NCBI GenBank assembly: GCA_051362555.1
Contig: CM120646.1
Span: 13,764,001-13,828,000 of the forward strand
DNA: 64,000 bases
Direction of reading: 5' to 3'
From: Lingula anatina
Taxonomy: Eukaryota > Animalia > Brachiopoda
Shown here: one piece after another, positions 8,344 through 63,710 of the stretch
Numbering within the stretch: position 1 is the stretch's first letter
Layout: the number at the start of each line of letters is the position of its first letter
Translations under genes and position numbers: made by a program
Notes under the pieces: model-generated
What the model was told of the DNA's origin: nothing
The model's input: the letters and a program-made list of their open reading frames with translations, nothing else
Databases searched by the model: none

Positions 8344-9050
8344 ATTGACTCTAGAAATGTTGTATTTATTTATTTTATTTTATTTTAATGTTTATGCTCT
8401 TTTTATGTTCATGACCCATTTTTTAAATGAATATACAGCAAATGGCTTATAGAATCTGATGACAACTTCCGTCCAGATGCGATTTTTTTTTATTTCTTTA
8501 CATTTTCATTTAAGTTACTAAATGGGTCTAGAATGGTTGCTGGTGGAAGGAGACAGCTTTTGCATTTATTGGTTCAGGAATATATAGACAGGCAAACAGT
8601 TACATTAAGAATAGGAACTGTCAACAAAGTATGGTGTTGTAGCATGCATCTATACTCAACATTGTAGATGTTATAGTAACTATACAGTTATTTTTGTAAT
8701 TTATGGTTCCCCATTTGAAATTATATTAAGGTGTTTGAAACTTATTATTTGTCTATGATAATTTAAGCACTCACATTATAGAGATGGAAGTGTGAGGCAA
8801 ACTTTTTATTGAGGAATAAAGTTAACATGACCGAAGAAAAATTTGGTTTATGAGATGTCCTTAATAAAGCCCCCATATTGTGTTTACCCAAACAAGACTA
8901 CTGATCAGTTGCATTGAGTATTGTGATTGAATTCTGAATGAATAATCAATCATAATACTAGCCATTCTTCTTGTTTTACTAACATTGTTGTTAATAAGGC
9001 AAATCCTCTAGTGCAGGGGAGTGCACTACAGTGAAATTCTTCAAGTTCAC

Positions 9051-9206
9051 TGCCATGAATGGTTATGCCAGGGGACTCCTGAATTTCCCTGTCATGAATA
9101 GTCATGCTGGAGGACTCCTGGATTTTCCTGTCATGAATAGTCATGCTGGAGGACTCCTGGATTTTCCTGTCATGAATAGTCATGTTGGGGGATTTCTTGA
9201 GTTCAC
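9051..9206. repeat. 39-bp minisatellite, about 4 copies, downstream of the WDR60 stop
   Basis: Unit TGTCATGAATAGTCATGCTGGAGGACTCCTGGATTTTCC at 9090 and 9129, with degenerate copies at 9051 and 9168. Confidence 0.9.
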
Positions 9207-16154: not shown

Positions 16155-16452
16155 AAGATGAGGTTTGGAGAACAGAATGGTTACATCTGAAAGATTCATT
16201 CATAAAGTGGAATTCTGAAAATTGACAATTTTTTTAGTTTTTGTGTCCAAGTTATTAACTGAACAACTTGATAAGTCAGTGTCTGCCATCTTTTCCAGGA
16301 ACCCGCCTTCAACCTAAAAGATGAGGTTTGGAGAACAGAATGGTTACATCTGAAAGATTCATTCATAAAGTGGAATTCTGAAAATTGACAATTTTTTTAG
16401 TTTTTGTGTCCAAGTTATTAACTGAACAACTTGATAAGTCAGTGTCTGCCAT
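16130..16452 (+). repeat. Tandem direct duplication (~160 bp, period 163) of the ROCO terminal exon start
   Basis: TTCCAG|GAACCCGCCTTCAACCTAA...GTGTCTGCCAT occurs at 16130-16289 and again at 16293-16452. Confidence 0.92.
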
Positions 16453-17273: not shown

Positions 17274-24503
<7,230 letters not shown>

Positions 24504-32133: not shown

Positions 32134-32815
32134 CGTTATTATAACGTTTATATAACAAAAAAAAAAAAAAAAAACGTTGTTGCAACGCTTTAAATCGTTC
32201 TGTGTTTGCTGGGTAGTACTGTACTTACATACAATATTTCCACTTGAATACCCTAATTGTACCTCCACATATAGTTGTCGAAGTTGTTTCAATCTTTTTT
32301 CACTATTTCAAAAATCTTCTCGAAGATATTGCAGTGGAAGGAGTCAACGAATAAAAAAAAAAAAAAACAAGAAAACACATGTACCACCGAGCAGACGTAT
32401 CTCAAATACAGTGCTCAGTACTATTCATTGCCGAACTGCACATAAAGGTAAACTAAGAGAAGTAATTGATGATAGTATTGTTCAGTAAGCATACAAAAAC
32501 TAAAACATTTATCTCACCATATTTGATGCTACTTTGCCGAAATAAGATAGATGGGGATGTTTTGTTATCAGGAAAATGTAGCAAAATGCTTCTCTTTAAT
32601 TAATGATCATTGGCGCATTCGAGGCTAATGAAACTTTATGGTTTTGTCGTTTCATCAAGACATATTGGCTAAACAAGGTCTGCATGAATTAGTAGGAGAT
32701 TTTCACGACGCAAGAGTACAAAACCAACGGACACGACAGAGAGTATCATTTCTTTGGCATTTGCTTTCACAGCGCTCCAAGCTCAAAGTTGCTTGTTCAC
32801 TTTAACTCTGTTGAC

Positions 32816-35431
32816 ATGGGTTTTAGAATAGGGAAAGTTTACGTTTTGATTCTTTTAATCTCAACAGCTGCTATTGGGCAAAGAAGAATAAGCTTAGGGC
32901 TTACCCCTGAACAAGCTTCTTGTCCAAAATACCCAGATGACGCTACAAAATTTCATTTGGAGAGCAAAAAGGAGAAAAGTAATGGTGAAATGAGACAAAA
33001 TTTCGTGGAAGACTTGGCAGCTACAAGAAAGGAAAAAGAAAGCAATATCTTGGTTGCGCCATGGAGAAGACGACGCAATCTCCCTGACGCTCCCCTCTCT
33101 GCTTTCTTTTCATCCACCACGCTACCGACTACAGATACAGTGAGCAGAACGGAAGACCCAACGCAAGCTATCACTCCCTCTGTTAGCCAAACACTCTCTA
33201 CTGACAATAACGGACAGTTCCAGACAACTGAAAGAACCATCGTATTTCCTCAACTATATGATAACCAATCAAAATACCTCATATTCCCTACGAACAGGCA
33301 AGTTTGCGTGTCGTTTCGGTCGTCAAGGCAACAGTTTCATATTGCCCGGATTAGTTGTTTCTGCGACGGTTACTGTGGGCTTTTTAGTGATTGCTGCTCA
33401 CCATTTTTACAGTGTCCCGATGCCTCAAACTCAAGCTCAACCCAAAACCCCTCAGCAGCAAGTAGCAAAATTAATATTTCATTGCACAGCATCGAATGCA
33501 AACCACAGGTTACAAAATTAGTAAGTAAAATGAAACCCAGCTACTACTGGATGATACGATCCTGTCCAGATGAGGGGTATAATTCACAGGTAAGAGAAAA
33601 ATGTGAAAATCCTATTAATTTTACCATCAACAATATTCAGCCTGTTTCTGACAAACGCACGAAGCTAACATTTAAGAACCGATATTGTGCCATGTGTCAT
33701 GGCATTACAAATCCCGCGCTGTGGTCGCCTTTTTTAATTTGTAGTGAGGATATTGACATGGAACACTTTCGGAATTTATCAAGCTTGGACGACATATTGG
33801 AGCTGGCACAAACACCTTTTTGCGCTATCCACTTTGAGCCACAATATGATAGTCCAGGAAGACTGTGTGTGGACAAAAATCGTGGCTTTGTTTCACATAG
33901 AGGATTCGTGGATGAATGGGCCTGCCCAAAGGACTCTCCGTTGACTGATTTGTGCAAGGCAAATTCCGTATCAGTTACACGTGTGATCACACACGGTGTA
34001 GAGTATCTAGTTAAAAATGTGTTCTGCTGGCTGTGTACCATGGTCCGGTCTGACACACCTGTCACAGTGAATGATTGTTCAACAAATGGTACGTATTTAT
34101 GTGAACATGTCTAATATCTGAGCATGGAAATTGATATTCGATGCGAGTGTATAAAACGTTAGGTATGAAATAAATAGAACAAATAATACATTTTCGTATT
34201 CATGATTTTGCTTAAGCGTAGGGGACGGAAAGGCATTTTTTCTTTTTATCTGAAATGTAGTCACCAGGATGGAAATTTGCTTTGTTTTGTTAGGCATGTA
34301 CTTTTCGCCTTATTCTTGTAATATTAATGACGTCCGTTTTTCAGATAATAAAGAACGTGGGTTCAATCCATTAGGATTAAGCGCATTCATCAATATATCG
34401 CACGGAAGCCAACAGTGTCGTCCATTGTCTAGTGCTGTAAGTCTATTATTTTCTTGTATTATATATTATACTATTTATTTTGAAAATAATATCTTTTCAG
34501 CGACATTATTCTTAACTCCATTTGCGTGGTTTCTATTTGAATCCCATATCGGGGGTGGGTCCGGGGGAGAACGAAAAACTTTGCACCCCCTATATCTTTG
34601 CTTCATGTCCTGGTTCCATCCGTGCCTTTCATTTCACACAAAAATATATACTAATGTAAAATCATGAGCAGACTGTTTAAAAATGCTTAACCATATTCGA
34701 GTCACCTTACCAGATATATCATCATCATCATCATTGTAAAATGCCCTGAAATGTAATCCCCCTCCCCCCCCCCCAAAAAAAAGAACAACATTATCTAAAA
34801 ATCATTCAAAGCGTATTTTTTTCAGATTCCATGCACAAATGACGTTGCACAAACCGGATGTTGGCTTCTGTCTGAGTTACACAACTTAGATTTCTATGTG
34901 GACTTCGACCTCGTATGTGTTAACAGCACAAGTATGAACCAGACCTGTGCAGAGTACAGAGCACTTAGTTCTCAACTCCAAAGTTTATTCATGAGGGGCA
35001 AGTTTCGTTCCGTTTTATCTACAGTAGGGACGGTCGTTTGGTTCTGGGTGTCTACGCCACACCGTTGTGTGACGTCGCCAGAGGCATCTCCCTTTGTTAA
35101 AGGTAAACGTGAGATTCGGATCTCAGAAAAAATTCTTTTGAGAAAACCTGTCAGCAGATACAGCGATGCTTTGAAGATGTTCACAGACTTCCAAGACAAG
35201 ATTGAGCGAGAGGTTCGTGACAAAAACATCGTATTTCAATATGGTGGGCTGGAATACGATTTACGAGTGATACATAATCAGCACACCATCTGTCCGCGCA
35301 GTACAAATGCACCAGAACCGAAACCGAAACCAAAAACGACTGCTAAGTCATCCAAAGATGCCCCTGGATTTAAGGTATCCCTGTTTATAACGGTTATTTT
35401 ATGTATACAGACAGTGGGGATACTGTTCTAA
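32816..35431 (+). CDS. Secreted or surface SMB-like Cys-rich protein, paralogue A
   Basis: Exons 32816-34088, 34345-34436, 34826-35431 join in frame. Signal peptide (VYVLILLISTAAIG), RRRR polybasic site, S/T-rich stalk, SMB-like CFCDGYCGLFSDCC, PVSDKRTKLTFKNRYCAMCHG, KNVFCWLC and a hydrophobic C-terminus (VSLFITVILCIQTVGILF*). Confidence 0.8.
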
Positions 35432-36038: not shown

Positions 36039-37531
36039 ACAGAGTACCAGATTTAATCCCACTGCCCAGTCACGGCTCACAACAGTGGGACCACACACTG
36101 ACATTTTTTCCAAGTAATATACTAAGAGTTAAAAAATAGAGCAACCACTTCCTTCCTTGAATAATCTTGTTATAAAATTGGAGAGGAAGACTAAATGTTC
36201 TCTATAGTATAAAGCTCCTGTGAAAAATCAAAATATTCGTCCTTTCTTCATTATGAAAAGTGCGGCTCTACAGTCACATGACATATTTGTAATTCGTTTA
36301 AGTAGATCCTCATAGCGTACGGCAAAGTGCATTGATACTTGGAAGTTTTGACCTTTAGCTTTGCCGATGAAATATTATTAGGTCCGTACTCGTACATGTA
36401 TTATTATCACTGCATTCAATAGTTCATTAATCTTTCCTATTTGATTAAATCTAACTGAAAAATGAGAAAGGAAATGGTTCATGTTGCAAATTCATCATTA
36501 CATATATATCATAGAGACAAGCTTCTGGTATGTCATTGTCAAGAAAGGATGTGTGCTTGCCCTAGTGCGCGGGGGGAGGGGGGGGAGTGATCACTTTGGA
36601 CCCATGGGGAATTGCTGAATAAGTGAATAAATAAATATGGCAGTATTCAACTAACAAACTAGTGACTAAATAAACGGAAAGATAAAAGAAAATAAAAAGA
36701 AATGAAAATGAACAGAAACATATCTAGTTATTTGGAAGGGGGTCTTTTCATTTATTTTTTTTTATGAAAAAATGGGCTTTTTACCACGAAACATACATGT
36801 ATATAGATCAAATTTTGTCTAGAGCGGACATTTTACTACGAGCCTGAAGAAGTATAAAAATTTTGCATTTTTACATTATCACGTCGGAGAGCGGCCAAAT
36901 CTCTTTGACGATCAGGCATTATCCACATACAGCTACCTTAGAACCCTCCCCGCCTCCACCTCCACATACAGCTGCCTGAGAAGTTTTCATATTTGGTACA
37001 TTAAAAAATGTCAAATTTGTAACTGGGTCCTTCAATGTAGATAAAGATAAGAAAGCAGGTGTACCACGTCTCACATGTATCACAAACGCAATGCTCTGCA
37101 CTGTCCAATACCAAATCACATTAAAGTTAACTAGAAGAAGTAAATGGATGGCGGTATAGTTAATAAAGCATACAAAAACACCATTACAATCAAAGAAAAA
37201 CGTAACGGCACATTTATCATATTCCTATGTATCTTTGCTGCTGGAACCAGGGAAGATAGATGATGTTTTGTAATCAGGAAAAGAGGCGAATCGCCCCTCG
37301 TAACTGATTCACATTGGATAATTTTAGATAATGAGACTTAATGGGCGCGTCAATTGTGTTTATTTTATCAAGATATATTGGCTAAATTAGGGTCTACCGT
37401 TCATTAGTAGGATATTTTCATAACGGAAGGGTACAAAAACAACGGACTCGACTGAGAGTGTCATTTCCTTGACATTCGCTTTCTAATGCGCTCCAAGCCC
37501 CGTGTTCCTTGTTGATTTTATCTCTGTTAAT

Positions 37532-38811
37532 ATGGGATTTAGAAAAGGAAAAGTTCATCTTTTAATTCTTTTAATCTTAACAGCTGCTATCGGAAAAAGA
37601 AGAATAAGCTTAGGGCTTACCCCTAAACTAGCTTCTGGTCCAAAACACCCAGATGACGCTACAAAATTTCAGTTCGAGAGAAAAAGGGAGAAAAGTAATG
37701 GTGAAATGAGACAAAATTTCGTGGAAAACTTGGCAGCTGCAAGAGAGAAAAAAGAAAGCAATATCTTGGTTGCGCCATGGAGAAGACGACGCAATCTACC
37801 CGACGCATCCCTCGCTGGTTTCCTTACATCCACCACGTCACCGACTACGGATGCAGTGAGCGGAACGGAAGCCACAACGCCCGGTATCGTTCCCTCTGCT
37901 AACCAAACAATCTCTATTGACACTAACGGACAGTTCCAGACTACAGAAAACCCCCTCTCCGTGTTTCCTCAACTAAATGATAACCAATCAAATTATCTCA
38001 AATTTCCTACTAACAGGCAAGTTTGCGTGTCGTTTGATTCAATAGTGCAACTGTTTCAAATGGTTTGGATAAACTGTTACTGCGACGATTATTGTGGTCT
38101 TTTCAGAGATTGCTGTTCACCATTTTTACAGTGCCCAAGCTCAAACTCAACCCAAAACCCCTCGGCAGCTAGTAGTAAAATTGATATTTCATTGAACAGC
38201 ATCGAATGCAAACCACAGGTTACAAAGTTAGTAAGTAAAATGAAACCCAACTACTACTGGATGATACGATCCTGTCCAGATGAGGGATATGATTCACAGG
38301 TTCGAGAAAAATGTGAAAATCCTGTTGATTTTTCCATCAATAATTTTCAGCCAGTTTCTGACAAACGCACAAAACTTACATTTAAGAACCGATATTGTGC
38401 CACGTGTCATGGCATTACAAATCCCGCGCTGTGGTCGCCTTTTTTAATTTGTAGTGAGGATATTGACATGGAATACTTAAAGAATTTATCAAGCTTGGAC
38501 GACATATTGGAGCTGGCTCAAACACCTTTTTGCGCTATCCACTTTGAGCCACAATATGATAGTCCAGGAAGACTGTGTGTGGACAAAAATCGTGGCTTTG
38601 TTTCACATAGAGGATTCGTGGATGAATGGGCTTGTCCAAAGGACTCTCCGTTGACTGATTTGTGCAAGTCAAATTCCGTATCAGTTACACGTGTGATCAC
38701 ACACGGTGGAGAGTATCTAGTTAAAAATGTGTTCTGCTGGCTGTGCACCATGGTCCGGACTGAGACGCCTATCACAGTTGAAGACTGCTCGTCAAATGGT
38801 AAGAGAGTGTG

Positions 38812-38864
<53 letters not shown>

Positions 38865-40211
38865 TACTTCTATGTGAGAATATAAAATATTTGGTGTGCT
38901 ATAAATACAACAAATAATAGTATCTCTGGTTTTGCTTGAGCGTAGGGGACAAAAAGGCATTTTTTTTCTTTTTTAAACATAACTACAGAATAGACGAGTT
39001 TTTACTGAAATGCACGGTAGTCACCGGGATAGAAAGTTGCTTTATTTTGTAAAGCATGTTATGCTTTTTGCTTTATTCCTAATTCTTATAAATTCACTGA
39101 CGTTAATTTTTCAGATCACAAGGAACGTGTGTTCAATCCATTAGGATTAAGCGCATTAATCAATATATCGCACGGAAGCCAACAGTGTCGTCCATTTTTG
39201 AGTACTGTAAGTGTCTGCTTTTCTTTTATTTTACATTATTCGACATAATGGCTTCGTTTCACGAAGCATAAAATGCTACATTTACATTTAATGGGAATGA
39301 GATGCTTCACGAATCACACTAAATAAAATGGCCGTTTCACGCATATCGGGAAATAAAGCTGCTTAATCTAAAACGAAAATACCCAATGGGACTTTCTTAT
39401 ACAGGGGTGCTTACGTAAAGGCATTTGTATTAAATTTGACGGCAATGAGCAGATAATTAAAAGAGGCTTAACCATATTCATGTTACCTTATCTCAGAAAT
39501 ACATTATCATTGTGAAATGCCATGAAATGCACACATTTCCAAAATATATATATAGATAAATAAACATTATCTAAGAAAGAATTCAAGAGCGTGTTTAAAT
39601 TTCAGATTCCATGCACAAATGACGATGCACAAACCGGATGTTGGCTCCTGTCTGAGTTATACAACTTAGATTTCTATGTTGATTTCGACCTCGTGTGTGA
39701 TAACAGCACAAGTATTAACCAGACCTGTGCAGAGTACACATCACTTAGTTCTCAAGTCCAAAGTTTGTTCCGGAAGGGCAAGTTCCGTTCCGCTTTATCT
39801 ACAGTGGAATCGGTCGTTTGGGTCTGGGTGTTTACGTCACACCGTTGTGTGACGTCGCCAGAGGCATCTCCCTTTAAGAAAGGTACACGTAAAATTCGGA
39901 TCACAGAAAAATTTCTATTAAGAAAAACTGTCGGCAGATACAGCGATGCTTTGAAGATATTTACAGACTTGCAAGACAAGATTGAGCGAGAGGTTCGTGA
40001 CAGAAACATCGTACTTAAATATGATGGGTTGGAATACGATATACGAGTGATACGTAAGCAGCAAACTAGCTGCCCCGATAATTCAAATGCAGCGGATCCG
40101 AAACCGAAACCCTCAATGACTGCTAAATCTTCCGCAGCTACTCCTGGCTTTCAAGCACATCTGCTTTTAACGATAATTTCATGTATAGGGGAGATAAAAG
40201 AACTGTTTTAG
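37532..40211 (+). CDS. Secreted or surface SMB-like Cys-rich protein, paralogue B
   Basis: Exons 37532-38798, 39115-39206, 39606-40211. Same exon structure and phases as paralogue A, and highly similar protein (CYCDDYCGLFRDCC, KNRYCATCHG). Confidence 0.8.
38816..38861. repeat. (TA)n microsatellite in intron 1 of paralogue B
   Basis: Directly visible run; it produces the YIYIYI tail of the ORF-track entry. Confidence 0.95.
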
Positions 40212-41069: not shown

Positions 41070-41939
41070 TCAGCCAATCAGCGGACCGTGAAGGTGTCCT
41101 GCGCTACTCGTAGCAGCTGGCGGAGAGACAGTCAGACTTTTCTGTATGCTCAAAGAACAAGTGAGAGGATCTTGCAACCGGCAGCTGATGGCTAAGTCGT
41201 AGGTCGAGTGTGGCGACATCTGGATGCCGTATATGGGCGTGGGTTCATTCAAAGCATCAGAGTCTTCAAACGCATGCGCAGCAGAAATAAGTTCCGGACA
41301 AAGAACATCCGGGAACTTGTTGCTAAACTCCTCAATGTGCTGGGAGGGTATTGTGACCCCTGTTTTGATAGCAACAACGTACAGCATGGCACCAGATTTC
41401 TGGTAGAGAACCTCCACGTCGAAGTTGGCCACTTTATCTGGAGTTTTTGCCCTGTATATTTTTCGAATGTCGTTAATGTTTGAGACGCTTCTAGAACATT
41501 CGACGCTGAAGCTATGCTTAGGCTTCAGTACGTTTTGGGCAGTGATATTTGCTAGAAAAGACGAAAAAATCAATACTGTATTAGTATGATATTTTAGCCC
41601 TAAACCTTTCCAAGAAAATCATATCTAATGTTTTTTTTACCATAAACCTTTATAGACGGAATTAATGCTACAATTAGCGGTCAGAGTCAGTTTCAGATTC
41701 TTTATTAACACACACCTTTACACAAAAGTACAACCATAGCAGCACAGCTAACTATCACAGAGCACAAATAAATAGATAAGCATATAAATGAACAAGACTG
41801 ATCTACACGCCCAGTCTCTGCTGACTGCGCATAGCGGATCGCACTTTGGCATTATGATTTGATTTGGAAATACGCTAACTACATCATTATTCGTAATACT
41901 TCAGATCAAAAACATAAATTAAACGTCCTTGATCAAATA

Positions 41940-41977
<38 letters not shown>

Positions 41978-44900
41978 GTTTTATACTTAAGAAATTCGTG
42001 AACTCTTTAGACCATATCACCATACAGATTACTTCGTAAGGTAACAGATAGGGAAGTTCACCTTTTCCAGCCAGCTGGATTTCAATGGGATAATGGTCAC
42101 TGACGGCGAGGGCATCGGCCTTGCTCATGCCTTTGTCAAACTCGTATATTCCTGCACTGTTGTGGACCACGGCGGACAGCAATTTTATCCCAGCTCCGAC
42201 GAACCTAGAATAAGACACGAGAACAAAGAAAATCCATTTTATTTCTACTTTAATGGCATGACCCTGGAAAGAGGATTAAGTTAACAAGAAGCAGGTTTGT
42301 GAATAAAATATCAGTGTGAAAGATCTGGATACCTGTGTACTCGAAGCCACTTTAATCGTTATGTTATAAATTCAGTCTTGAAGTTCCAACGGTATGATCT
42401 ACGCTGAGTACACGTTAGAAAAGGAATCGAAATGTATTTCGAATGATACTTAGTAGTAAAGCGGTGGTTATAAACATCATTCAATGATGTTGTCATGTTA
42501 AAAAAAATTTAAGTGGTTTTGTACAGATGTGTGCGTGTGTACGTATGCACATGCGTGTGTACGTAAGAATCTGATTAGGACTCAAAAGTGAGATTATAAT
42601 CGTAATTATGTTAACAGATTTAAATAGTATATAACCGAGTGGTTACGGAAGCATTTTAAAATTTTAGGGAAATTACCAATATTTTCCTAAAGAAAGGTAT
42701 AATGCGCATGTATGAAATTACACACGTCGTTAGACATATATTTATATACATGTATGTGATATGGTGACTTTAACTATTTATTTAAGCAGTTGGTAGAGTC
42801 ACAAAAAAAAACTTGAAACCAAACTCCAAATAAGGTAGAAAAATTATGATATAAAATTTCTGAATGTATTTAGCCTTGGCTCCCAGACTAGAATGTGTCA
42901 AAGAGTGTGCGGTACGGTCCACACGTACCTGTCATAAGCGCAGTCTGTAGCAGTAACAGTGGTGTCAAAACAGTTAGAGATAAGCCACTTAAACCGGGGG
43001 TCGGTCCAGAGACTGATGTGATCCCACTCATCGCCATTGACGTAATTGCAATCTGCGTTGAAGTCCCCAGCGATCAAAATATCCTGTGAGAAAAATTAGT
43101 TTTACACATATTATGTCTTTGTAAACATGAATTATTCAGATGATTCTACACTTGCTACATACCTCCAACAGAATGGACAATAGAACTTATTTCGAGAATT
43201 ATTGGGTGATCCGGATTCAGTCACAACCGTGATCATATCGTTCCCCTTTGAATATATGTTAAGCCCACAAATATCGTCAAAATGTTTGGAGAATTTGATA
43301 AAATGTTTTGTCCACTAATAAACTAATGACGATATATATAGAAACTAAACATCCTTCCTTGGCGGAGGAAACAAATATACGTCAAGCCATGTCAAAACTG
43401 GAAACGTCTTTTTCAGGATGAACAAAAATAAAACACTTCAGAATGAAATTTGGGATAACATGTACATAAAACTTGTCAGTGAGGTTTAACAAAGGTTTGC
43501 TGAAAGTCGAGAGTCCAGTGAATGGCTCGGAATGAAATAATTTGAAAATTAAATCCGTATTTAGGAAAATCTGTGTACCTCAAGGGCCCAGTGTTGTTTC
43601 ACAGCGTCGTATACCCGGGTCAAATTTCCAATTTCGCTCACTGCCTCCTGCGGGTCCGTGTGGATAGCGATGATAGCAAAATCAGTCACTTCTAAAAGAA
43701 ATAGACCACATTTTATTGTTTATTTGTTATTCATTTTTATAATGCAATTTGATTTACACACTGTTTGTATCCCTCAATACTAGTGAAAATTCCACTTACT
43801 TTCAGAAGAATAACCATCCTTAAAATATCTCACAATCTCAATAAAACAGACGGCAAGACGGTTGAGAAAGTTTACCGGTGTCTTTGGCGTGGAAGCGCAC
43901 CACATAGGGTTCTCTCTGAAACGGGTCTGTGCCGCTGTCGACGCCGTCATCGTATTGGTATGTGCCTGTTACTTTGACTTTGGCGGGCCTTAAGACGGGG
44001 AAAAAGTGGTTAATTTTACTAAATAATCATGGCTGGCGATAGAACAGTACTAATCTAATCAAATGAAATAGGACCACGAAAAACAAAAGGCTAGTGTTAA
44101 GGTTCAAAACTTACCTGCTGTAATTAGATTATTGTGGGAGGTATCGTGAATTGACATGACCTTTGAAAATTGTGGTGAAAGTTAAAACAATTGTTAAGTT
44201 TAATTTATTTCATAAAGCCAGTGCTAGGCCAGATGTGATTGTTTTTTGTTTTTTTCCTGAGGTTTGCAAAGGTCAATAATATTATAATACTGATGGTAAA
44301 ATATGTTTGCCCACAAAGATTTAAATTAATAAAAATAAGACCAAAAGTGGGCTAGTACGCCCCAAAAAATTAACTGCAGTAAAATCTTCTAATTATCCTG
44401 ACCAGATCAGACAAGAAGCTATGCTATATGTATATAAAATATAAAAAAAATTAGAACTAAAACTGATTTTCTCAGCATACATGTATGCCCTCTTTTTGCG
44501 ATAATAATTCGTACACTAAAATTCAAAGCAATACTATGTTAATAAATATACATTCACTAATCTGCATAAACAATACCGAAATACCTGTACAAGAAGGCAT
44601 ACTGTTCCTTGCTTGCAGTTCTTCCTAGCCGGTCACTCACTTGTTTCTGGTATGCATTGGAGCCAACCAGACTGAAAACATAACACGAAATAATCTTTTC
44701 GATCAAAGTTCCATTTTTATTTATTATTATTATTTTTTTTTTTTGGGGGGGGGGGTGTGCATTAAAAGTTTAAGTTATTTGATTACAGTTATTAATTTCG
44801 AAGTCGTGTTGGACAGCAATTAATTGATACATTCATCTGAATGACATACTGTAAGACAGTGGGAGAGAGGGAGCGAAAAGAAGAGAGAGCATACCTATTT

Positions 44901-49200: not shown

Positions 49201-50990
49201 AATAAACCTTATGAGAAAGGTTTCTTCTACTCAGTCAAGTCAAAAATGTGTGTTAGAGCAGATGTGTCGTGATCTCTCGGTGGCGACCCCTATAGTGCAG
49301 GAGATGAAGCCTATGTCAGAAAATTTTCCCGCTTCAATTTCATCAAGTGCACGTGCCAGCTTGTACGCCTAGCGTTTGGTACCTCTATCACATTTTCCTC
49401 TTTTTTTCTGATGCAGGGAAAACATTGGGTGTCTTCAAGCATAAGCAAATAAAGCCACAATTTTTAGTCGCGTTATCAGATAGTGTCAGAATATCAGTTA
49501 TAGTTCTAGGCGTTTTCATTGTTATTTTTATCGTTTTTTCCTTCATCAATTATTCATTTATTTTGCTAGTTAGCGCATTACGGACGTTTCTATATGCATA
49601 CGGTTATGTGTGGATACATATTAGTTCATATATATATTTATATAACAAATACTAGTTTGTATATTTACATATCATACAATTTGTACGGTTAAAGCGGTGT
49701 ATAAACCTAAAGACTGTTTAAACCCTATTATTTTAGTCATTATTCAGGTTTGTGGAAATTAACTTAACTGACTGCATGTATCTACTGCTAATTAACGGCT
49801 CTGTAGATGGGTAAATTGGTGGGCTTTTCAGGAGAGTGCAAGATGAAATAAAAAAGATTTGAGAGTTCCTGCATTGCGGGAAAATGCCATTTACCTCGGA
49901 TAAATTCGTAAAACATGAGTTAATCCGCAGGAGTATCCAAGCCTGGAACATTTTAACAGGTCACACGCTTTCTGCAATTTAACCCATTTGAATGTTTCAC
50001 CTTTTCTTAAGGATATTGTAACCCTTTATTATCATCTAGATCCTGAATATGAGTCTCTTCCTGCATCTAATTATTCAAAAATGCATCTATTTTGTGCTGA
50101 TTTAAAACAACGAAAAAAACCTCGAAAAAATATTTTTTTGTTGCAATGTACAAGCATAGGCAACTCAAAACGTTATGGTCAATTTAACACATTTCTATTT
50201 TGAGGTGAGATAGCAAGCGTGTGGGGCGTAACTTCATCTCTGAAGAAGATTTTAACACGAAAATTGGCAAAGTTGACCAGGAGTGTGTAGGCTACAATCT
50301 CGTGCCACCAATTTGGTTAAAATGTTTTGGTTATGGAGTTAGGGGCCCCTAATTACCTATTTTGATTAAACAAAGCAATTTGCTTTATCAACGATAAAAT
50401 CTGGACTAAGACTTTTAAGAAAAACCGCTGGCATGGTTTTGGAGTACCTAATGATGCCATTAAATCGGCGCTGAAACGGTGATCGTGGGTACTCAGATAA
50501 AAAAGAAATTTGAAAAACCGATTTTTCAGTTTTTACCCCAAAATCGCAATTATGACGTCACGTAAGATAACACATGTGTAAATGTTAATTTAATTTAGTT
50601 ACTGTACACTTAAGATTTATTTATTACCCAAAATAATACAGTATATATAAGGCAGTCGATTAGGAGTTTTGGGCGAAGGCTGACAATAACCTTAACACCC
50701 TGTATATCGCCTTTATCCATCCTTGGACATAATGTCCAAGATCCATCCATTACACCTGATCAGTCAAATAAAAGAAGATCCTCATCTTCTCCCTTGACCA
50801 TTGACGTTCATCATGCAGGGGTCGCGCCGGATCAATTCTACTCAAAGAAAGTGTTTGATTGAAATCAACTTTCCCTGCAGTCTTGCAAGTGGACATGTTT
50901 GCATTTCGTGTATCCTGGACAATGCCTCTCTAATTGGATACTGTCAGATGATGTAGCCCTAACTTTTGTGGAGTGTCTAGTATTTCACGG

Positions 50991-50997
50991 TATAAAG
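50991..50997 (+). promoter_or_regulatory. Candidate TATA box of LPMO-chitinase gene 1
   Basis: TATAAAG about 160 bp upstream of the ATG at 51151; positional inference only. Confidence 0.3.
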
Positions 50998-51150
50998 GAG
51001 ACGTCCGTGCCCCACACTAGGCATAAGCTTTCTGTGTAAGGCTGATATGTTCATGTAGCTTTATCAGTGTAGGAGAAAAACTATCAATCTAAACTTCAAG
51101 AACTTCGTTTCAAAAAGTTATTTGATCATATCGGTGTCTTTGAAATTAAA

Positions 51151-54100
51151 ATGCAACTGTGCACAGGTTCGTCGCTATGGTGGCTGTGTATTGCAATACT
51201 GCAGTTTTTTCATCGTGTTAACAGTCACGGCAAGATGACGTCACCAGAGCAGAGAGATCCCAGGAACACTGGTGTCAACTGCGGGGGGCTATATGTAAGT
51301 TATGGAGCAATATTTTCAATGCAAATTTATTAAATTTTCAGTATATTGTCAAATTAATGTTCTGTCGGTTATATATTTATCGTTTCTGGCATGCTGTACT
51401 TAAAACTTTCAGTGATGTTGGTCTTGAAAAACCAGTAGTTTCGTAAAATCATATTCATTTAATTTCCCAGTATCAGACGCAGAATGGTGGTAGGTGTGGA
51501 GTGTGCGGTGACCCAGTGGGAGGGCCTTTCAAACACGAAATTCCAGGACAGAATGTGAAAACGTACAAACAGGTAGGAATTAGTCAAAAATTCCAGCGAA
51601 CGTCTCTCTTTTGTACAGTATGGCCATTGTAGGTGGTTTGTTCTCTTAAAACCTCTGTCAAGTAAAAAAAATTGGTACATAGCTCAAGACGTATTAAAGG
51701 CGATAAAAGTTAGCCTTTTGAAAGTATATGAAAAGTTTGCTTTTTCCCCTTTATTGTTTTGAACCTGATCATCACGACTAAGACTAAAGAGAAATCACAT
51801 CAACGATGATTTAATTGATAGTAGTGATGATTTACTGGATTTTTTTCCAGGGCGAGACAATCAACGTCAAACTAGTCATAACGGCCAAACACATGGGCTG
51901 GCACGAGTTTCGCATCTGCAAAAACGACGACAAGACCAGGGTGACGCACGAGTGTATGGATAAGAACCTCCTAGTTATACCACTGAAGGATGGAACGACC
52001 GTCACTCGCATATTTGAACCAGATGATGGACGGTAACTATGTGAAAAACATATTTCAAAAACGCTATAATTTTTTTTATCGAATCTCCAAAGCTATACAT
52101 CTAAGATTCAGTGGCGAGATCAAGGTCATTTGATAAAGGGGAAAAACGCCATCCTTATGAAATTGTAAACGATTTAATGTACTCTTCTCATATATCTGTT
52201 CTTGTCCGTTTCACATTTGGTGCTTTTTGAAGCAGTTAATTTGCATGAAACGTTATACTTACAGTTGTAAATGTCAAATGGGGCAAAAACTTCTTTTTCG
52301 ATTCAGCTGCTTATAGGCCTCCCACATATGCACTTCTGCGTGTATATATATAGGCCTATTGTACAGTTTAGTTCCCAGAATTTATTGAATTTAATTATCC
52401 TTTTTCTTGTCACAATACTTAAAAAAATAACCACTAAGAATATCGGCAGACAAAAAAAAATTGAAATGCTATCATCAATATATCGCATAATGACTCTGAT
52501 CTTATCATTTACATTCAGTATGATAGTGACCAATAAACAGATATATGCTTACTCGTAAGTTAGGTGGGATTCATTATTTATTTTCAGTTTCGTCAGCTCG
52601 ACTATGTACCCGTTCGTGGGCAGTGGGTCCACTTTAGTGGTACCGGTCAAGTTACCGCCAGATCTGACCTGTGACCATTGTGTGTTCCAGTGGAAGTGGC
52701 ACTGTGGTGAGATGGCATCTTTTATTAATCTTGATAAATTTGTGTGTATCAATCACAGAATTTGAATTTTTCCGATATGGAATTTGCAGCTTTTTTAGTT
52801 GAAATAATTTGAAAAGCGCATGTATTAAAGTGAAAGCTTGTATATAAACGATGGAGCTATAACACTGTATACACGTAAAAAACATGTATGCACGGGCTCA
52901 ATAATGTGCATATTTCGAATTCAGGATCTTTCTTTCAACAGGTAACAACTGGGGCCCGGGAGGCAAAGGGACGGGACCACAGGAGGAGTTTTTTGGTTGC
53001 GCCGACATTGCAATAGAGGGCACTGCAGCTCCACCGACCACGACAACCCTGCTTCCTCCTCTGCCAACTCTGCAACAACCTGCAGACCAGGGACGTAAGT
53101 TTACTACTTCGACTTAAGTTTTCCAAGTCATGATTTCAAAACATGATTTTTTTTAACTTCGTGTTTGCATTTTATAAAATGAAAGTGAGCGTTTTAACAA
53201 TTAAAACTGTCTGATTCATAAACTATTTGCACCTCCATGCCTCATGATACATCATCTGTGGATGACAAAATGCACACCTTTAAAATACAAAAGCAGCAGT
53301 ATTTAACTACTGCTATAGTGTACTTCATACAGCAACACGCGTTACCACGCCGTCTATCTTTCTGTATATAGACACCGTGCACGAAGTCATGAGGATGAAG
53401 ATAGACAGAAGAAACACACAACATATGTTTTATCATGCATAATATTAAGAAATTAATAAATGTTAACTTTTTCCCAGATCAAATGAAGATGGGGTGTTGG
53501 TTCACCAGCTGGGCACAGCACAGACCAGAAAGGGGGCAGTTCCTTCCAGCCGATATTGACCCCAACCTCTGCACCCATATATACTATGCATTCGCCAAGA
53601 TAAATTTTGACGGAACTAGTTACGAGCTGAAAACTGTGGAATCGAATGACCAAGGTCTGTGGTTGATTAATGTTATGAAAATGTGCTCATTAAGATTGGT
53701 TATTTATTCTAAATTTTAATACACGTGTGAACAACAATTCTGATGCTTGTTTGAACCGTACATTTTATTATATAGTTTGCTATGTTTGCTATATAGTATC
53801 CTGTGTGGTCAGAATATGCTTAAGTTGAGAGAGCAAAACCCAGGCAACATAATGTTGAAGTCCAATATGATTTAAGTCGTTGATACAGTGTATTATCCGT
53901 TATGTCGCTGAGCTTAAATCACGAAACTATTACTAGGCCCAAGAATTCACTGCTTTTTTTGCACTCGCTATCAACACATATATATATGACGCAAATTTCA
54001 TCTCCCCGAAAGACCACATGGAGCAAGTTGTGAAGCTGAAAACCCGCAACCCAGCTCTGAAGGTTCTGCTGGCGGTGGGCGGCTGGAGCCATCCCTTGGA

Positions 54101-56440
54101 GATCTTCAATGAGCTGTCAAAAACCACCGAATCCAGGAGAGATTTCATAAGCAACGCAATTCGCTTTTTAAGAATGTACGGGTTCGATGGACTGGATTAT
54201 GACTGGGAGTACCCGGGGGATGTTGACCGTGGAAGTCCCCCAGAAACAAAGCAGTCTTTCTCAGATCTGGTCAAGGTATTGTGTTTATAGAATAATGCGA
54301 TGTAGAAATACACATATGTATCATTGATACTTTTTAAAATAAGAACTCGTCTAAAATCTGTACTCGTACAGTTCGATTATTGTGCTTTGGACAACCTTAT
54401 TTATAGAATATCTAAGAAACATATTTCATATTTAGGAAACAAGGCTTCGTTTCCAACAAGAGGCCGAAGTTAAAGGCAAGAGACGATTACTAGTTACAGC
54501 ATCGGTAGGAGTAACAGATGAGAAAATTAACGACGGTTACAATATAGCAGTGATGAACAAGTAAGTTATATGCCTGTGAAACCGTCTTTTTATTTCCAAA
54601 GATGTCTCATGAATTGAAAAAGTTTTAGTAGATCAAATATATATGAAGTTGTTATGTTTAGCGACATTTAAAAGAAAAATGATATAAAATAAATCTTCCT
54701 TTATGCAACTGTTAATGTTAGACTCCATGATATAAATCGACAAATTGACCATGTAATGGGATATTGACAGAACTGATTTTATCCAGTGACCCGCAGAATG
54801 CAAATTGAAGATGTCAATCAATATTTCAGATACCTTGATTGGACGAACCTGATGACCTATGACCTTCACGGGGCGTGGGATGGCTATCTAGGTCACCACG
54901 CTGCCTTGTTTGCCAGATCAGATAATTCAGGGAGCCAGGATACTCTCAACATTGTGCGTCCTTCATTTTTGTCTATCTCCATTAGCATAGCTGTGTGTTC
55001 TTAATATTAAAACATAATAGATTTCAAGTTAAGGATACAAACTCTGTACATTTTCTGCGAGACATTCTGCCATACTATGAAATACATCCGATACTGCAGT
55101 GGCGAACTGACAGCCCAACAAAAACGGAGCGTTTTTTAACTTTACCATATCGTTACAAAAACGATTTTTCGGCAGATAAACGTTATGGAAACGTTCTATA
55201 ATAACGTTCTGCGTTTGCTGAGAGTAAGCGATTCATTTTTTCCCTTTTTTCCAGGACTATATCGTCCGGAATTGGATAAAGAAAGGCTACGATCCCAGCA
55301 GGCTTGTTCTTGGGGCCGTTTCTTACGCGCGCACCTTCACCATGACTGACAGTAATGCCTACTCGCCGGGAGATAGAGCAACTGGTGCGGGAATCGCTGG
55401 ACCCTATACCAAACATGCAGGATTTCTTGGTTACAATGAGGTGCGTGCTGCACAATTGTGCTCACCATACGTTTTTGACTAAGATACAAATATACCGATG
55501 TATCCATTTATCAAACCTTTTGCTGAATCATCAGTAGTAGAGCAAATACATTTTGACTCGTCAGAACATGCAACACGAAACAAAACAAACCGCTATATAT
55601 GCGCTTCAGACCCTTCATAACAGATTAAAATTAATACACAAATATGCACGTAAAATTTTGTTGTCAGATTTGCGAGCAGAGTGGCTGGGACGAAGTCTTT
55701 GACCCGCAGATGAGGGTACCATATGCATATAAACCAGACACGAAACAGTGGGTGGGATATGACGACCCCAAGAGCATGGACTTGAAGGTACCGCAAATCC
55801 ACCGATCTGAAATCAAATCGCCGCTGTTTGTAAAACCCTAGCTTATTATAGCTCATAACTAGAGTTTTCAGTTGTTCTAATTTTATCTATAGGTTCTTCC
55901 ATAATCCAAATATGAGTCATGATACTGATCTTAAAATCCAGAAATAGGAGTAATTTAAGCTTATAAATATGTCACACCTGACGTGGTAGTAACTCTCAAG
56001 ATTATCCATACAAATTTAACTTAGAAATGAATTCACGATATGAAGAGCGTTATCCCCCTGGGCCCAAAGTATCTGACACATATATCATATAGATAAACAA
56101 AATCAGGTATTTGTGTAGAAAAAGAAAGACATTCACGTCGTTTCTCCTATAGGCCGACTACGTTTGCAAGATGGGTCTTGGAGGGCTCCACGTGTGGGCG
56201 ATGGACATGGACGACTTCACAGGGAGGTCTTGCAACGAGGGGAGATATCCTCTCCTCACTGCTGCCAAGGAGGGTCTAAAGAAATGTTCCACTGCCGGAA
56301 ATCCGGGACCCGGCACGAGACCGCCTTCAGCCAATAGCATGAACTTCCGGTGCGGACCAATAGCTGTGTGGTGCGAGGCTGGGAAAAGATGTCTAAAGCC
56401 TCGCCAATGTCTGTACTTGACACGATCAAGAGGGAAATAA
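51151..56440 (+). CDS. AA15-type LPMO-GH18 chitinase fusion, copy 1 (ends in a partial CBM14)
   Basis: Exons 51151-51294, 51471-51572, 51851-52032, 52588-52706, 52942-53094, 53478-53654, 54013-54275, 54436-54560, 54830-54953, 55255-55440, 55668-55787, 56153-56440 are all phase-compatible. Signal peptide then HGKMTSP..NCGG..GRCGVCGDP..TAKHMGWHEFRIC..LPPDLTCDHCVFQWKW..GNNWG..PQEEFFGCADI (LPMO), a P/T linker, and GH18 motifs LCTHIYYAFA, KVLLAVGGW, FDGLDYDWEYPG, MTYDLHGAW, WVGYDD, WAMDMDDF. Confidence 0.9.
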
Positions 56441-58693: not shown

Positions 58694-59334
58694 TCAACGG
58701 CCCACCACCCCTGGGCAACTCCACGACCATCCACAGTATCGGCCACACCACACGGTCCCTGGGCCACACCGCTTTAATATGGCATTCCCCCAGTTACACT
58801 GATAGAACTTGTTGGGGTCGGTCGGGTGAGAATAGTAGCCCCACTGGGTTTTACAGATTTTCCCTGAAAAAAAAAAGACGACATCTTTAAGTGCATTTTC
58901 TAAAAACGGATAATATGGATTGCTTGTCACTTTATAAGTTCAATTAATTTATATCTGAACAAAATAGCAGACTACTGAGTCCTTTCCTATTGCTACACGT
59001 ATAATATCTCAGCACCTAAATAATACACAGCTATGTACCTGTAGGTTTTTTCGTGGTTGCCTTTGTCGTGGTCGTAGTCATAGTCGTAGTGGTCGTAGTC
59101 GTAGTCGTAGTGGTAGGTACAGGAGTTGTGGTCGTAGTTGTAATCGTAGTCGTAGTAGCTGGTCTTGGAGTTGTGGTAGTGGTAGGCTCGGGTCGCTTGC
59201 ATTTCAAGGCGTTGAAGGCGGTGGTCAGAAGAGGGTACTTTCCACCCCTGCAAGAGGCGCCGTTGAAGTCGTCCATGTCCAGGGCCCATATGTGCATCCC
59301 CCCGAGACCCATGTTACAAGCGTATTGAGCCTTA

Positions 59335-59379
<45 letters not shown>

Positions 59380-62300
59380 CAACAACAACAACACTCAGTG
59401 ACACCCGGATAAATCAAATCATATGATTGTTCATACACTGAAAATAAAACAGCATTTTGATTAGTCAGATTACCGGTACTCTTGTATGCAATTTCGTTTA
59501 ACTAATGAAATCAAGGGTGCATTATCGTATAATATAACTCAAATGTACTGCTCGTTGTTTGATATTGACCCCATACCTTAAGTGCGATGCTTTCTTGGTT
59601 ATCGTAGCCAACCCACTGCCTCGTGTCAGGGTTGTAGGCGTGGGGAACCATGGTTTCATAGTCAAATGACTCGTCCCAGCCGCCCACCACACAAATCTGG
59701 AACGACCAACGGATTAAGCGTACGGTATTTCGTAGTTTCAGTACTATAGTAGTTAACGCCTGATTTGACGTTTGTTGGTGTTAATATTGGAATGTTGTAA
59801 ACGTATCTGTGGGAATGTTACAGCAATTTTTGTGACTTTTAAAAAATGAAAACGATACGATAATTTGACACCTACTGCTTGAAGGGCGAAATGTCAACGT
59901 GCAGTTTCCTTTCCTAACAATGCTCTTACCTCATTGTATCCGAGTATCCCACGGATGTTGGTGTACGGCCCCGCGGCCCCGGGGGCAATGGCCAAGTCCC
60001 CAGGGTGGTGTGAGTTAGGTTGAGACATGGTGAAGGTTCGGCCGTATGTGGCGACGCCAAGGAGCAGTCGGCTAGGCTCGTAGCCTCTCCCTATCCAGTT
60101 CTTGACGATAGAGTCCTGGCAAAGAGAACCGATTCAAGTTGTGTTTGATCTGTCGACCTTGAACTACGCTTTGAAATCAAGTTCCTCAGAAAATATGGCT
60201 TTTCATCTGAATTTTTGCAAATAGTGAATCATATCATCAATTCAATCAATAGTTCGACATTGGTGGTATTCGCTCCTTCTACACATGACTTCTCTGACCT
60301 GTTTTCCACAATGTATAGATACTAGCAAATCCAAAAAGTTTGGTGAAAGGAGGCACAGGGGGGCTATCTGGTTTTTTTATGGTAAAATTGATTTGAGCCA
60401 ATGAGAGTACACGCCCATCCCCCCCCCTCCCCACTGCCAGGTGTCGGGTATGGTGTAACCAATACAGAACGCTAAATACCTTAAAACTTCATAAACCTTA
60501 ACCCATTAGCAGCCAAAACAATTCTTGTACTGATAACGAGAAAATATGCAGCACCCTCTCCCCCCTCCCTCGTACACTCACAATGTTAAGAGTAGCCAGG
60601 CGGCCTGACTTGGAGAACAAAGCTGAGTGGTGTCCCAGGATACCATCCCACGCCCCATGCAGGTCAAAGGTCATCAGGTTTGTCCAATCAAGGTATCTGA
60701 AAATATTGACTGGCAGCTTTAGCGTGTACTTTACCGGTCACTGAATAAGAATTATTCTATTGTATTCTACTGCACGGATATATTGCCGATTTGTTTCATT
60801 TAGGCACAAACAAAATCTAATATTTACAACGTATAACGGTTGTATACCTGCTCATCACTGGAATGTCGTAGCCCTCTGCAATAACTTCGTCAGTCACTCC
60901 AACAGAAGCTGTGACAAGTAACCTTTCCTTGCCCGTATTAGCGGCCTCCTCTTGGAAACGCAATCTTGTTTCCTGGATTTCAAAGAAAAATGTCTCTAGA
61001 GCGAGCTTTAGATATGACCTCGACAAAGCTCTGACTAACATGAGGTTAATATAACCAAGATAAGGTGTTATAGTTTTATTTTATTTTATTTTATTTTATT
61101 TTATTTTATTTATTTATTTATTCATGTATTTATTTATTTTATTTATTTATTTATCTCTTTTGAAGAGGGAAGATCTAGGACTTTTCATTTTACCTTGACC
61201 AAATCAGCAAAATATTGCTTTGTCTCCGGAGGACTTCCGCGATCGACGTCTCCGGGGTACTCCCAGTCGTAATCCAATCCATCGAAGCCATACTGGCGTA
61301 GAAATGCGATCGCGTTGGTCAAGAAGTTTCTTCTGGTTTCAAATGTTTTTGACATTTCGTTAAAGACCTTTAACGAATGGCTCCAACCACCGACTGCCAG
61401 AAGAACCTTCAGGTCTTTGTTACGGAGTTTTAGTTTCACGACCTGCTCCATGTTGTCTACAAATATACATGCAGTATATTCTACAATAATTTCACAGATT
61501 GGACGATGTACCAGTAAATACAGGATTTAATTGAATGACAATATGCATCGTCTTCTTGGTGAAACATGCACATTTACTGTATATGAAAATAATCTCCCAT
61601 GAGAAGACCATTAGACAACTCTATTGGGCTGTCGACACAGGAAAAGGCAAAAAAGTAAAAAAAAAAAACATTCTTGGTCAGCATAACTTAGACCAAATTA
61701 AACACATTTGCCTCTCCTCCTCCCCCCCCCCCCCCACCCCCCACCCCCACCCCACCCCATGTCCTTGCTTTTGCAGTTTTACTTACCTGGGTCGTTCGGT
61801 TCTGTCTGCCTTAATGTGAAAGCTCTGCCGTCCCATTGCACCTTGGCGAAAGCATAAAATATATGCGTACACACATAAGGATTTATGTCCTGTGGTCCAA
61901 ATCGTCCGCCCCCTGCTCTATACTGTGCCCAATTGGTGAACCAACAGCCAACCTTCATGGTACCTGCGGTGATTGATAACGAGGATATATGCCTAGGACA
62001 ACTGCATTAACCCTTGAACATTAGCTTATGGCAATGCCATTGTGACATGCTTTCATATTAGTAAATCTCCTTTTTTATATTTTCAAAGTTTACGAGAGAG
62101 AGCAAAACAAAAAGCAGTTGTACGTCACGGCAAATACATGTATCTTGAAGCGAATAGGGTCAAATAGACGTGCCAAAATTTCGAGAAAAAAAATAGCTGA
62201 AGGGATATAATGTAGTGGAATTTCCCGTTTATCATAATGCGAATATTCATTAACTCAACTAATTCTGTGATACAAGGTAGTGTTTTGTAATACATTTCTT

Positions 62301-63710
62301 TTCCTTGATGCATACTTGTTTAGGATATCGTATATTTCTAAATTTAATGAAATTAATTCATCACAAATTGCCATGAGACGTCCAATGCCTTGAACCGCGT
62401 TTTAGGCCTAAAGATTTTCTAAATTCATTTGACCGATTCCGACAAAAATCCAGCACTTTTACATCTCTATTAATTAACAATTATCATACCGGGTACATCT
62501 TATTATATTCCGGGTACAACCACAAAGTACCTGGTTTTGGTTCCCCTGGTTGAAGAGTTGGTAAAGGTGGAGGTGGGGTCGACGAAGGCCGTAAGGTGGT
62601 CGCAGGGCCCTCTATTCTGATATCGGCGCAACCGAAAAACTCCTCCTGGGGTACATTGTCTATGTCTCTCCAGAAGTTATTACCTGTGGTAAAATATGTC
62701 GTGCGTACTGAATTTCAACGTCATTAACTTATATTTGACAATATGCATGTGTACATAATGAATCGTTTCAGCACATATTGTATGTACTTAATATAATTAA
62801 AAAACAAACGTTCCATTATTACTTGCAATAAAATACATATTTACGTTTGAATACAAATTATGCCTCGTTTGGTGATTAATACATGTAGGACATTATCAAT
62901 TTTTTTCAAAAAAACAACCGGTCGATAAACTTTCTTAGAAGACGCCAACTCACCGCAGTGCCACTTCCACTGGAACACACAATGGCCACAGGTCAGATCT
63001 GGCGGTAACTTGACCGGTATCACTAAAGTGGCCCTACTGTCCTCGAACGGGTACATAGTTGAGCTGACGAAACTGAAATTAAATAACATCCCACCTAACT
63101 TCAAGAATATGCGTGTAAGACAGTATGCATCGTATTGAAGTAGCATTTTATAATTTTTTGTCTGCCTTTATTCATTGTGTAATAATAGCCGACCCTACTT
63201 AACGAATAAGTGCATATATGTTTTATGTTTATAATTTATGTTATGTATGCTTAGTTGTAAATGCCTGGGTCACGTGTCGCTGGTATCTTTTATCAAATAA
63301 TGTGCATTTTGCACATTCTGCCATTCGAACTGCTTTTATTGTCTTCGTTTTTATTAGACTATTAAATGATCAACGATAAATCCCGCGGTTCACGAAACTA
63401 CACTGTATGGCATATAAAATCTTTCCTTGGTGGGTCACTGTTTAAAGGGCACATACCGATCATGTACTCGAACTTTAAATTGAATACTATATAAAAATAC
63501 ACGCTTTTGGCGGATAATACATCAGCAAGCTAACCGTCTGTCATCTGGCTCAAAGATGCGAGTGACTAACGTGTCATCTTTTAGTGGTATTTGTAAAAGG
63601 TTTTTATTCATGCACTCGTGGGTCACCCTGAACTTGTTATCACAGATCCGAAACTCGTGCCAGCCTTTGTGCTTTGCCGTTATAACAAGTGTAACGTTGA
63701 ATGTCTCTCC
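58694..63710 (-). CDS. AA15-type LPMO-GH18 chitinase-Thr linker-CBM14 fusion, copy 2 (first two exons presumably beyond the window end)
   Basis: Minus-strand exons 63710-63535, 63072-62954, 62683-62531, 61963-61787, 61456-61194, 60972-60848, 60696-60582, 60115-59930, 59696-59577, 59330-59039, 58863-58694. Intron positions match copy 1. Motifs TAKHKGWHEFRIC, PQEEFFGCADI, FDGLDYDWEYPG, a poly-Thr linker, and CKTQWGYYSHPTDPNKFYQC..RCGPGTVW..C (CBM14/ChtBD2). Confidence 0.9.
59336..59393. repeat. (AAT)n(AAC)n microsatellite next to a splice acceptor of copy 2
   Basis: Directly visible. On the coding strand it reads (GTT)n(ATT)n just before CTAAG|GCT. Confidence 0.9.
61075..61153. repeat. (TTTTA)n/(TTTA)n low-complexity repeat
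   Basis: Directly visible intronic run. Confidence 0.85.

Follow-up and report, generated by a model that had tools for sequence, protein, structure and literature searches.

The window analyzed here, a 64,000-nucleotide stretch of the genome of the brachiopod Lingula anatina (GenBank assembly GCA_051362555.1, contig CM120646.1, positions 13,764,001 to 13,828,000 of the forward strand), contains a gene (gene A) that joins a lytic polysaccharide monooxygenase (LPMO) domain of family AA15 to a chitinase of glycoside hydrolase family 18 (GH18) in a single reading frame. Gene A is a real gene, and an earlier, sequence-only reading of this DNA was right about the fusion; it overlooked an inverted paralogue close by (gene B), a remnant of a family 14 carbohydrate-binding module (CBM14) that is likely present in the tail of gene A, and the reduced binding face of the LPMO domain. 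Both genes resemble P0001, a public L. anatina gene prediction of 860 amino acids that is named “chitotriosidase-1.” There is little doubt that the fused protein of gene A is made, and a bifunctional secreted LPMO-chitinase is, overall, the explanation that we favor, with reasonable though not high confidence. The features of the two genes are as follows.

50991-50996, positive strand: TATAAA, a candidate promoter box 160 bases upstream of the ATG, proposed from the sequence.
51151-51225, positive strand: predicted signal peptide of gene A, residues 1-25, with a hydrophobic stretch at residues 3-17; the His26 that follows is also present in P0001.
51151-51294, positive strand: exon 1, with the leader, His26, a shortened loop and the first Cys.
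51471-51572, positive strand: exon 2, LPMO, with the CGVCGD motif.
51851-52032, positive strand: exon 3, LPMO, with Ala94 and His96 (TAKH).
52588-52706, positive strand: exon 4, LPMO; together with flanking intron, 91% identical to gene B.
52942-53094, positive strand: exon 5, with the final LPMO strands (Trp186, Glu197 and Phe199) and the Pro/Thr-rich linker.
53095-53477, positive strand: fusion intron of 383 bases, phase 1, GT-AG; gene B has an intron at the equal position and in the same phase.
53478-53654, positive strand: exon 6, start of GH18.
54013-54275, positive strand: exon 7, GH18, with Asp354-x-Asp356-x-Glu358.
54436-54560, 54830-54953, 55255-55440 and 55668-55787, positive strand: exons 8-11, GH18, including MTYD.
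56153-56440, positive strand: exon 12, with the end of GH18, a Cys-rich tail and the stop codon.
56330-56395, positive strand: likely a CBM14 remnant that corresponds to the second half of the module, by similarity to the CBM14 of gene B.
58694-63710, negative strand: gene B, 11 exons in the window, with the LPMO (from the equivalent of exon 3), a linker, GH18, a Thr-rich linker and CBM14.

The 12 exons of gene A (51151-56440, positive strand) splice to 1983 nucleotides and a frame of 660 amino acids whose sole stop codon is terminal, and all 11 introns are of the GT-AG type. The product is arranged in the order of a signal-like leader, His26 (codon CAC, 51226-51228), the AA15 LPMO domain, a Pro/Thr-rich linker of 27 residues and the GH18 chitinase, and the fusion junction (53094/53478) is in phase 1 on both sides. 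The coordinates, the exon count, the His codon and the junction phase given by the sequence-only reading were all recovered when the gene was rebuilt. Because the exon borders were set by hand for homology fit, the open frame is in part a product of construction; an independent check is provided by P0001, which matches all 12 exons in the same order. P0001 carries both PF03067 and PF00704, is identical to gene B at 605 of 631 residues (96%) and to gene A at 392 of 565 in the best alignment, and passes the cut-offs of both Pfam models (LPMO_10 with 107 bits, where 23 are required; GH18 with 266 bits). When the exons of gene A were scanned one by one, six of the seven chitinase exons matched GH18 (E ≤ 0.1; two of them above the curated cut-off) and followed the order of the profile, and two of the five LPMO exons matched LPMO_10, both under the curated cut-off. 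The highest-scoring hydrophobic 15-mer of the leader spans residues 3-17, small residues precede His26, and in alignments His26 falls on the His1 of homologues, with the corresponding His of P0001 likewise at residue 26. In P0001, residues 45-198, which comprise most of the LPMO domain, are repeated exactly as residues 199-352, the second copy being without His1; this repeat may be a real partial duplication or an artefact of the assembly or the gene model.

Gene B lies in inverted orientation to gene A, and its first two exons fall outside the window edge. Its frame is open, 364 of the 532 residues aligned with gene A are identical, and all nine comparable introns, including that at the fusion junction, lie at the same aligned residue and in the same phase in both genes. 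The last exon of gene B contains a Pfam match to CBM14 above the cut-off (E = 7e-7). Exon 4 and 49 flanking intron bases (52557-52724 in gene A, 63101-62936 in gene B) are 91% identical, as compared with 69-80% for the other exons, and comparison of the two copies suggests that this region of the inverted pair has likely undergone recent local gene conversion. The simplest history of the pair is that a gene of the LPMO-GH18-CBM14 type was duplicated in a head-out arrangement, after which gene A lost the Thr-rich linker and half of the CBM.

For the LPMO domain, database and structure searches were performed with residues 26-198 of P0001, and gene A was compared by alignment, which covers the LPMO stretch of P0001 over the entire domain. 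The only sequence match in the PDB is TdAA15A from Thermobia domestica (5MSZ; E = 9e-19). An AlphaFold model of the same residues, with a predicted local distance difference test (pLDDT) score of 85.6 and a predicted template-modeling (pTM) score of 0.84, also found 5MSZ as its best match in Foldseek (E = 3.5e-12; TM 0.77). The LPMO domain of gene A is thus assigned to AA15 by sequence and modeled fold, as the earlier reading had proposed. Conservation was counted in the 96 complete domains among 149 listed homologues, the 53 incomplete ones being left out. Since the pattern used to select these domains requires His1, a Pro and an Arg, the conservation of these three residues counts for nothing as evidence. 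In the other copper-site columns, all 96 domains have the second His, 94 the Glu, 88 the axial Phe and 78 the Ala, and gene A has kept all four (His96, Ala94, Glu197 and Phe199) together with the eight core Cys residues. The ligands named by the sequence-only reading (His1, the His of TAKH and the Phe of QEEF) correspond to His26, His96 and Phe199, the latter two in conserved columns. P0001 and gene B, wherever their sequence reaches, also have the two His residues, the Ala, the Glu and the Phe of the copper site as well as the eight core Cys residues.

The catalytic motif of the chitinase, previously read as an intact DxDxE, is present as Asp354, Asp356 and Glu358, and is accompanied by Met430-Tyr432-Asp433 (MTYD) and Trp580. 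The MTYD and terminal Trp motifs have a role in active GH18 enzymes. Among solved structures, P0001 as a whole is matched best by human chitotriosidase (E = 4e-95) and acidic mammalian chitinase (AMCase). Downstream of the barrel, the Cys-rich tail of gene A resembles the second half of the CBM14 of gene B (8 of 15 residues identical; E = 3e-4), and an equal or higher score was obtained in 2 of 5000 shuffles. A complete six-Cys CBM14 was not found in gene A, in which there is no Pfam match to it and the similarity is confined to the second half; the tail therefore likely holds a half-CBM14 remnant, as judged from this similarity. The two halves of the gene A protein are rather likely both to be active.

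RNA runs X1, X4, X7 and X8 were aligned to gene A, and runs X1, X2, X8 and X5 to the 5′-part of gene B, which makes six of the nine runs bearing the same label. Run X1 yielded six reads on gene A from 12.4 million records, all aligned over their full length, and the first mate of each pair lies on the minus strand, which is the sense orientation for a standard stranded library. The X1 bases comprise 47 in the bin that contains the end of exon 5, both adjoining bins being empty, and 834 in the chitinase exons. The piece of 47 bases is part of a split read, because five reads, none longer than 151 bases, cannot fill 834 bases; together with 254 bases on exon 6 it makes two full reads. By this depth arithmetic alone, one X1 read is deduced to cross the fusion junction of gene A. 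In run X8, one read pair lies on exons 1-2 with 90-95% likeness and overlaps the bin 50900-51093, where the candidate TATAAA box is located, by about 47 bases. Expression of the gene is low in the sampled RNA runs.

Several of the findings gathered in this and the following two paragraphs weigh against the reading of gene A as a bifunctional enzyme of independent origin. The stretch between His1 and the first Cys is 19 residues long in gene A, as compared with 28-41 in all 92 of the listed homologues that have the motif, and contains no aromatic residue, which all 92 have. With 12 residues lost from this stretch, the equivalent of Tyr24 of TdAA15A is gone from gene A, and in insect AA15s this Tyr is counted as a key residue (PMC9156745). 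Tyr24 and Tyr166, surface aromatics on either side of the His brace, bound the flat face of TdAA15A and are described as possible substrate-binding residues, not as a criterion of the family (PMC5823890); Tyr166 is kept as Trp186 in gene A, and since the aromatics are not a family criterion, its LPMO is filed as a divergent AA15. In addition, the tongue of gene A is short and lacks the Cys pair, and an insertion of about 16 residues is found past the second helix (50 residues, as compared with 32-37 in 70 of 89 listed homologues, by a crude pattern). As far as the alignment can tell, the substrate-binding face of the gene A LPMO is altered and its copper-site residues are all retained. The fold model, moreover, represents residues 26-198 of P0001 and not gene A itself, and is without the last strand. 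The ratio of nonsynonymous to synonymous substitution between gene A and gene B, which counts in favor of the bifunctional reading, is 0.09 for the GH18 part, in which synonymous sites are near saturation, and 0.23 for the LPMO part, a value that is only approximate and whose lowness is partly confounded because of the likely gene conversion in exon 4. A fusion whose LPMO no longer cuts chitin, but is carried by an ordinary chitinase to bind copper or chitin or to supply peroxide locally, would fit the 12-residue deletion, the lost Tyr24 equivalent, the short tongue without its disulfide, the insertion and the long branch on which the fused LPMOs fall in the tree described below. However, this explanation is rather improbable, as the copper-site residues (both His, the Ala, the Glu and the Phe) and all eight core Cys residues have been retained, and the tongue Cys pair is also missing in 14 of the 92 listed homologues, the tongue being described as not conserved across the AA15 family (PMC5823890).

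The distribution of the fusion bears on its origin. When exon 3 and the LPMO region of P0001 were used as queries in word-index searches, P0001 was the only protein returned. With HMMER, 1309 relatives were detected at E ≤ 0.001, and among the matches listed (150 of the 1309) none of the 149 AA15 relatives besides P0001 carries GH18. A profile search restricted to proteins of 605-2000 residues, whose named AA15 relatives come from molluscs, the annelid Owenia and Lingula, returned 39 proteins with GH18 in none; it is weak evidence because it missed P0001 itself. In the two surveys combined, GH18 accompanies none of 180 AA15 relatives among the matches listed; since the tunicate and algal fusions mentioned below were not retrieved and one search missed P0001, absence elsewhere is not established. 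A search of the ESM Atlas with residues 180-760 of P0001 gave GH18 clusters only (scores ≤ 0.81), and a phage search gave GH18 matches only, all of them weak. In a quick tree of 119 domains, with 56 of its 116 inner branches open and an organism name lacking for most rows, the three fused LPMOs form one clade with a support of 100, away from the other named Lingula AA15. This clade sits on a long branch (1.14) without a supported sister, so that an independent origin is unproven. When exon 7 is searched alone, its best match in the PDB is a two-domain chitinase (5GZU), and the mammalian enzymes rank below it. An ancient fusion, or one taken up as a unit, that has a common origin with the AA15-GH18 proteins of tunicates or algae and has been lost or missed in other animals, would agree with the equal domain order reported for tunicates, Chlorophyta and diatoms (PMC5823890) and with the failure of the survey to retrieve any tunicate or algal fusion and of one search to find P0001. 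It is nevertheless improbable in view of the 180 listed relatives without GH18, the position of the GH18 nearest to animal chitotriosidase-type enzymes among solved structures, and the intron-rich structure of gene A. The fusion probably arose independently in the brachiopod line.

As for transcription, the read at the junction is single and was deduced rather than listed, because three reads are the minimum for the junction listing, which is empty; the RNA evidence across 53094-53478 that the earlier reading had proposed as a check thus amounts to one read deduced to cross and stops short of a listed junction. Runs X4 and X7 gave no reads on gene A. The 5′-part of gene B has one partial read in one of its four runs, at a site where, on the question of whether the read belongs to gene A, the two genes are 75-86% alike; this read carries no information on the junction of gene B. 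It is very unlikely that gene A gives mainly separate products, with an LPMO-only form arising by intron retention or intronic polyadenylation and the fused form being rare: read-through from exon 5 into the fusion intron meets a stop at 53115-53117, the intron contains ATTAAA at 53200 and AATAAA at 53455, and read support for the fusion is minimal, but AT-rich introns often contain hexamers of this kind, no separate leader precedes the GH18 exons (a short polar stretch is all that follows the single open in-frame ATG of the intron), the position and phase of the junction are conserved in gene B, and X1 has no coverage in the mid-intron bin 53228-53421. A single fused protein is the reading that the nine matched introns of gene B and the two domains of P0001 also uphold.

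If gene A encodes a bifunctional LPMO-chitinase, its product would be secreted, and cleavage before His26 would free the amino group of this residue. Copper would be bound by His26 and His96, with Phe199 in the axial position, and crystalline chitin would be oxidized at C1, as it is by other AA15s, with a reductant and O2 or H2O2 driving the reaction. Through the linker of 27 residues, the chitinase may be held at the new chain ends, where the tethered GH18 would hydrolyze the loosened chains. Since the binding face of the LPMO is partly lost, much of the grip on chitin would likely come from the chitinase (and from CBM14 in gene B). By analogy, the performance of Jd1381, a bacterial LPMO-GH18 fusion whose full-length form outperforms any mix of its parts (PMC10154629), and the boost that AA15s give to GH18 chitinases in trans (PMC5823890; PMC9156745) may be cited in favor of such tethered action. 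The fusion itself likely originated when the animal's own AA15 and GH18-CBM14 genes were joined in the brachiopod line, and was then duplicated. It is tempting to speculate, although we consider it doubtful, that brachiopods built the fusion independently from their own genes and that the LPMO shed part of its binding face because it is docked on the fiber by the chitinase to which it is tethered. If so, protostomes would have their first fusion of this kind, and the LPMO would be a natural example of one that needs its hydrolase as a carrier in order to work. The two adjoining natural variants, one with CBM14 and the other with a remnant, would permit a test of tethering synergy and of the rescue of a trimmed face.

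Both sites of action that can be proposed are weakly supported. The gut, where dietary chitin or the peritrophic matrix would be the substrate, is a tentative first guess with a somewhat less than even chance of being right; the chaetae, shell or pedicle cuticle are a less likely place. Lingula has 31 chitin synthases, and chitin synthases show high expression in its gut and its digestive caecum (PMC4595640). The gut is placed first because of this expression and because the shell-matrix chitinases of known length are far longer than the gene A product. The identity of gene A with one of the shell-matrix chitinases of Lingula was considered and found unsupported, two of the three being far longer, at 1089 and 2120 amino acids. 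A role in radula remodeling, which the sequence-only reading had included, is excluded, as brachiopods, to our knowledge, have no radula. The fusion would give the chitin biology of Lingula an oxidative component.

Elsewhere in the window, an uninterrupted frame of 1048 codons (11692-14838, positive strand) encodes a ROCO-type protein with leucine-rich repeat, Roc and COR domains. Two similar, two-exon-like genes in tandem (32696-35431 and 37487-40211, positive strand) encode Cys-rich proteins that start with a leader-like sequence and end in a hydrophobic one, for which there is no Pfam match at E ≤ 0.01. A frame on the negative strand (41919-42275), likewise without a Pfam match at E ≤ 0.01, contains SDHYP, which we take to be the C-terminal motif of DNase I-type nucleases. 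Tandem repeats occur at 16126-16452 (period 163 bases), 23205-23445 (period 50 bases) and 9046-9192 (period 39 bases).

To date, fusion of AA15 to GH18 on one chain has been reported for some proteins of Chlorophyta, Bacillariophyceae and tunicates in the founding paper of the family (Sabbadin et al., 2018; PMC5823890), in line with the sequence-only reading, which had attributed such fusions to only a few lineages, and AA15s carrying GH18 or GH9 domains are mentioned in a 2021 survey (PMC8615602). These fusions were compared with gene A by description only. Brachiopods are not named among the fusion-bearing groups in the available portion of the founding paper, whose table includes five distinct Lingula AA15 accessions, none of them matched to gene A, and a literature search, the coverage of which left most subscription journals outside, found no description of the fusion in brachiopods or lophotrochozoans. 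The single characterized LPMO-hydrolase fusion known to a 2023 review is bacterial (PMC10154629). Jd1381 (JdLPMO10A) of Jonesia denitrificans resembles the Lingula genes in having an N-terminal LPMO and GH18 on one secreted chain (PMC10154629). However, it is an AA10-CBM5-GH18 protein with the CBM between the domains, whereas genes A and B have an AA15, and a CBM14 (gene B) or its remnant (gene A) follows GH18. TdAA15A and TdAA15B of T. domestica share the fold, the His brace and the Ala with gene A, and the chitin-specific TdAA15B also has the axial Phe (PMC5823890). By contrast, they are single-domain proteins with five disulfides, whereas gene A lacks the Tyr24 loop and the tongue disulfide and has about 16 residues inserted. 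P0001 is the same kind of LPMO-GH18 fusion as genes A and B, but is named as a chitinase only. The GH18 enzymes of the animal chitotriosidase and AMCase type share DxDxE, MTYD and the terminal Trp with gene A, as well as the GH18-linker-CBM14 order of gene B; in the fusion, an LPMO domain sits between the predicted signal peptide and the barrel. Consequently, the AA15-GH18 design is already known, and what is new is its occurrence in a brachiopod, its probable independent origin and the remodeled face of its LPMO.

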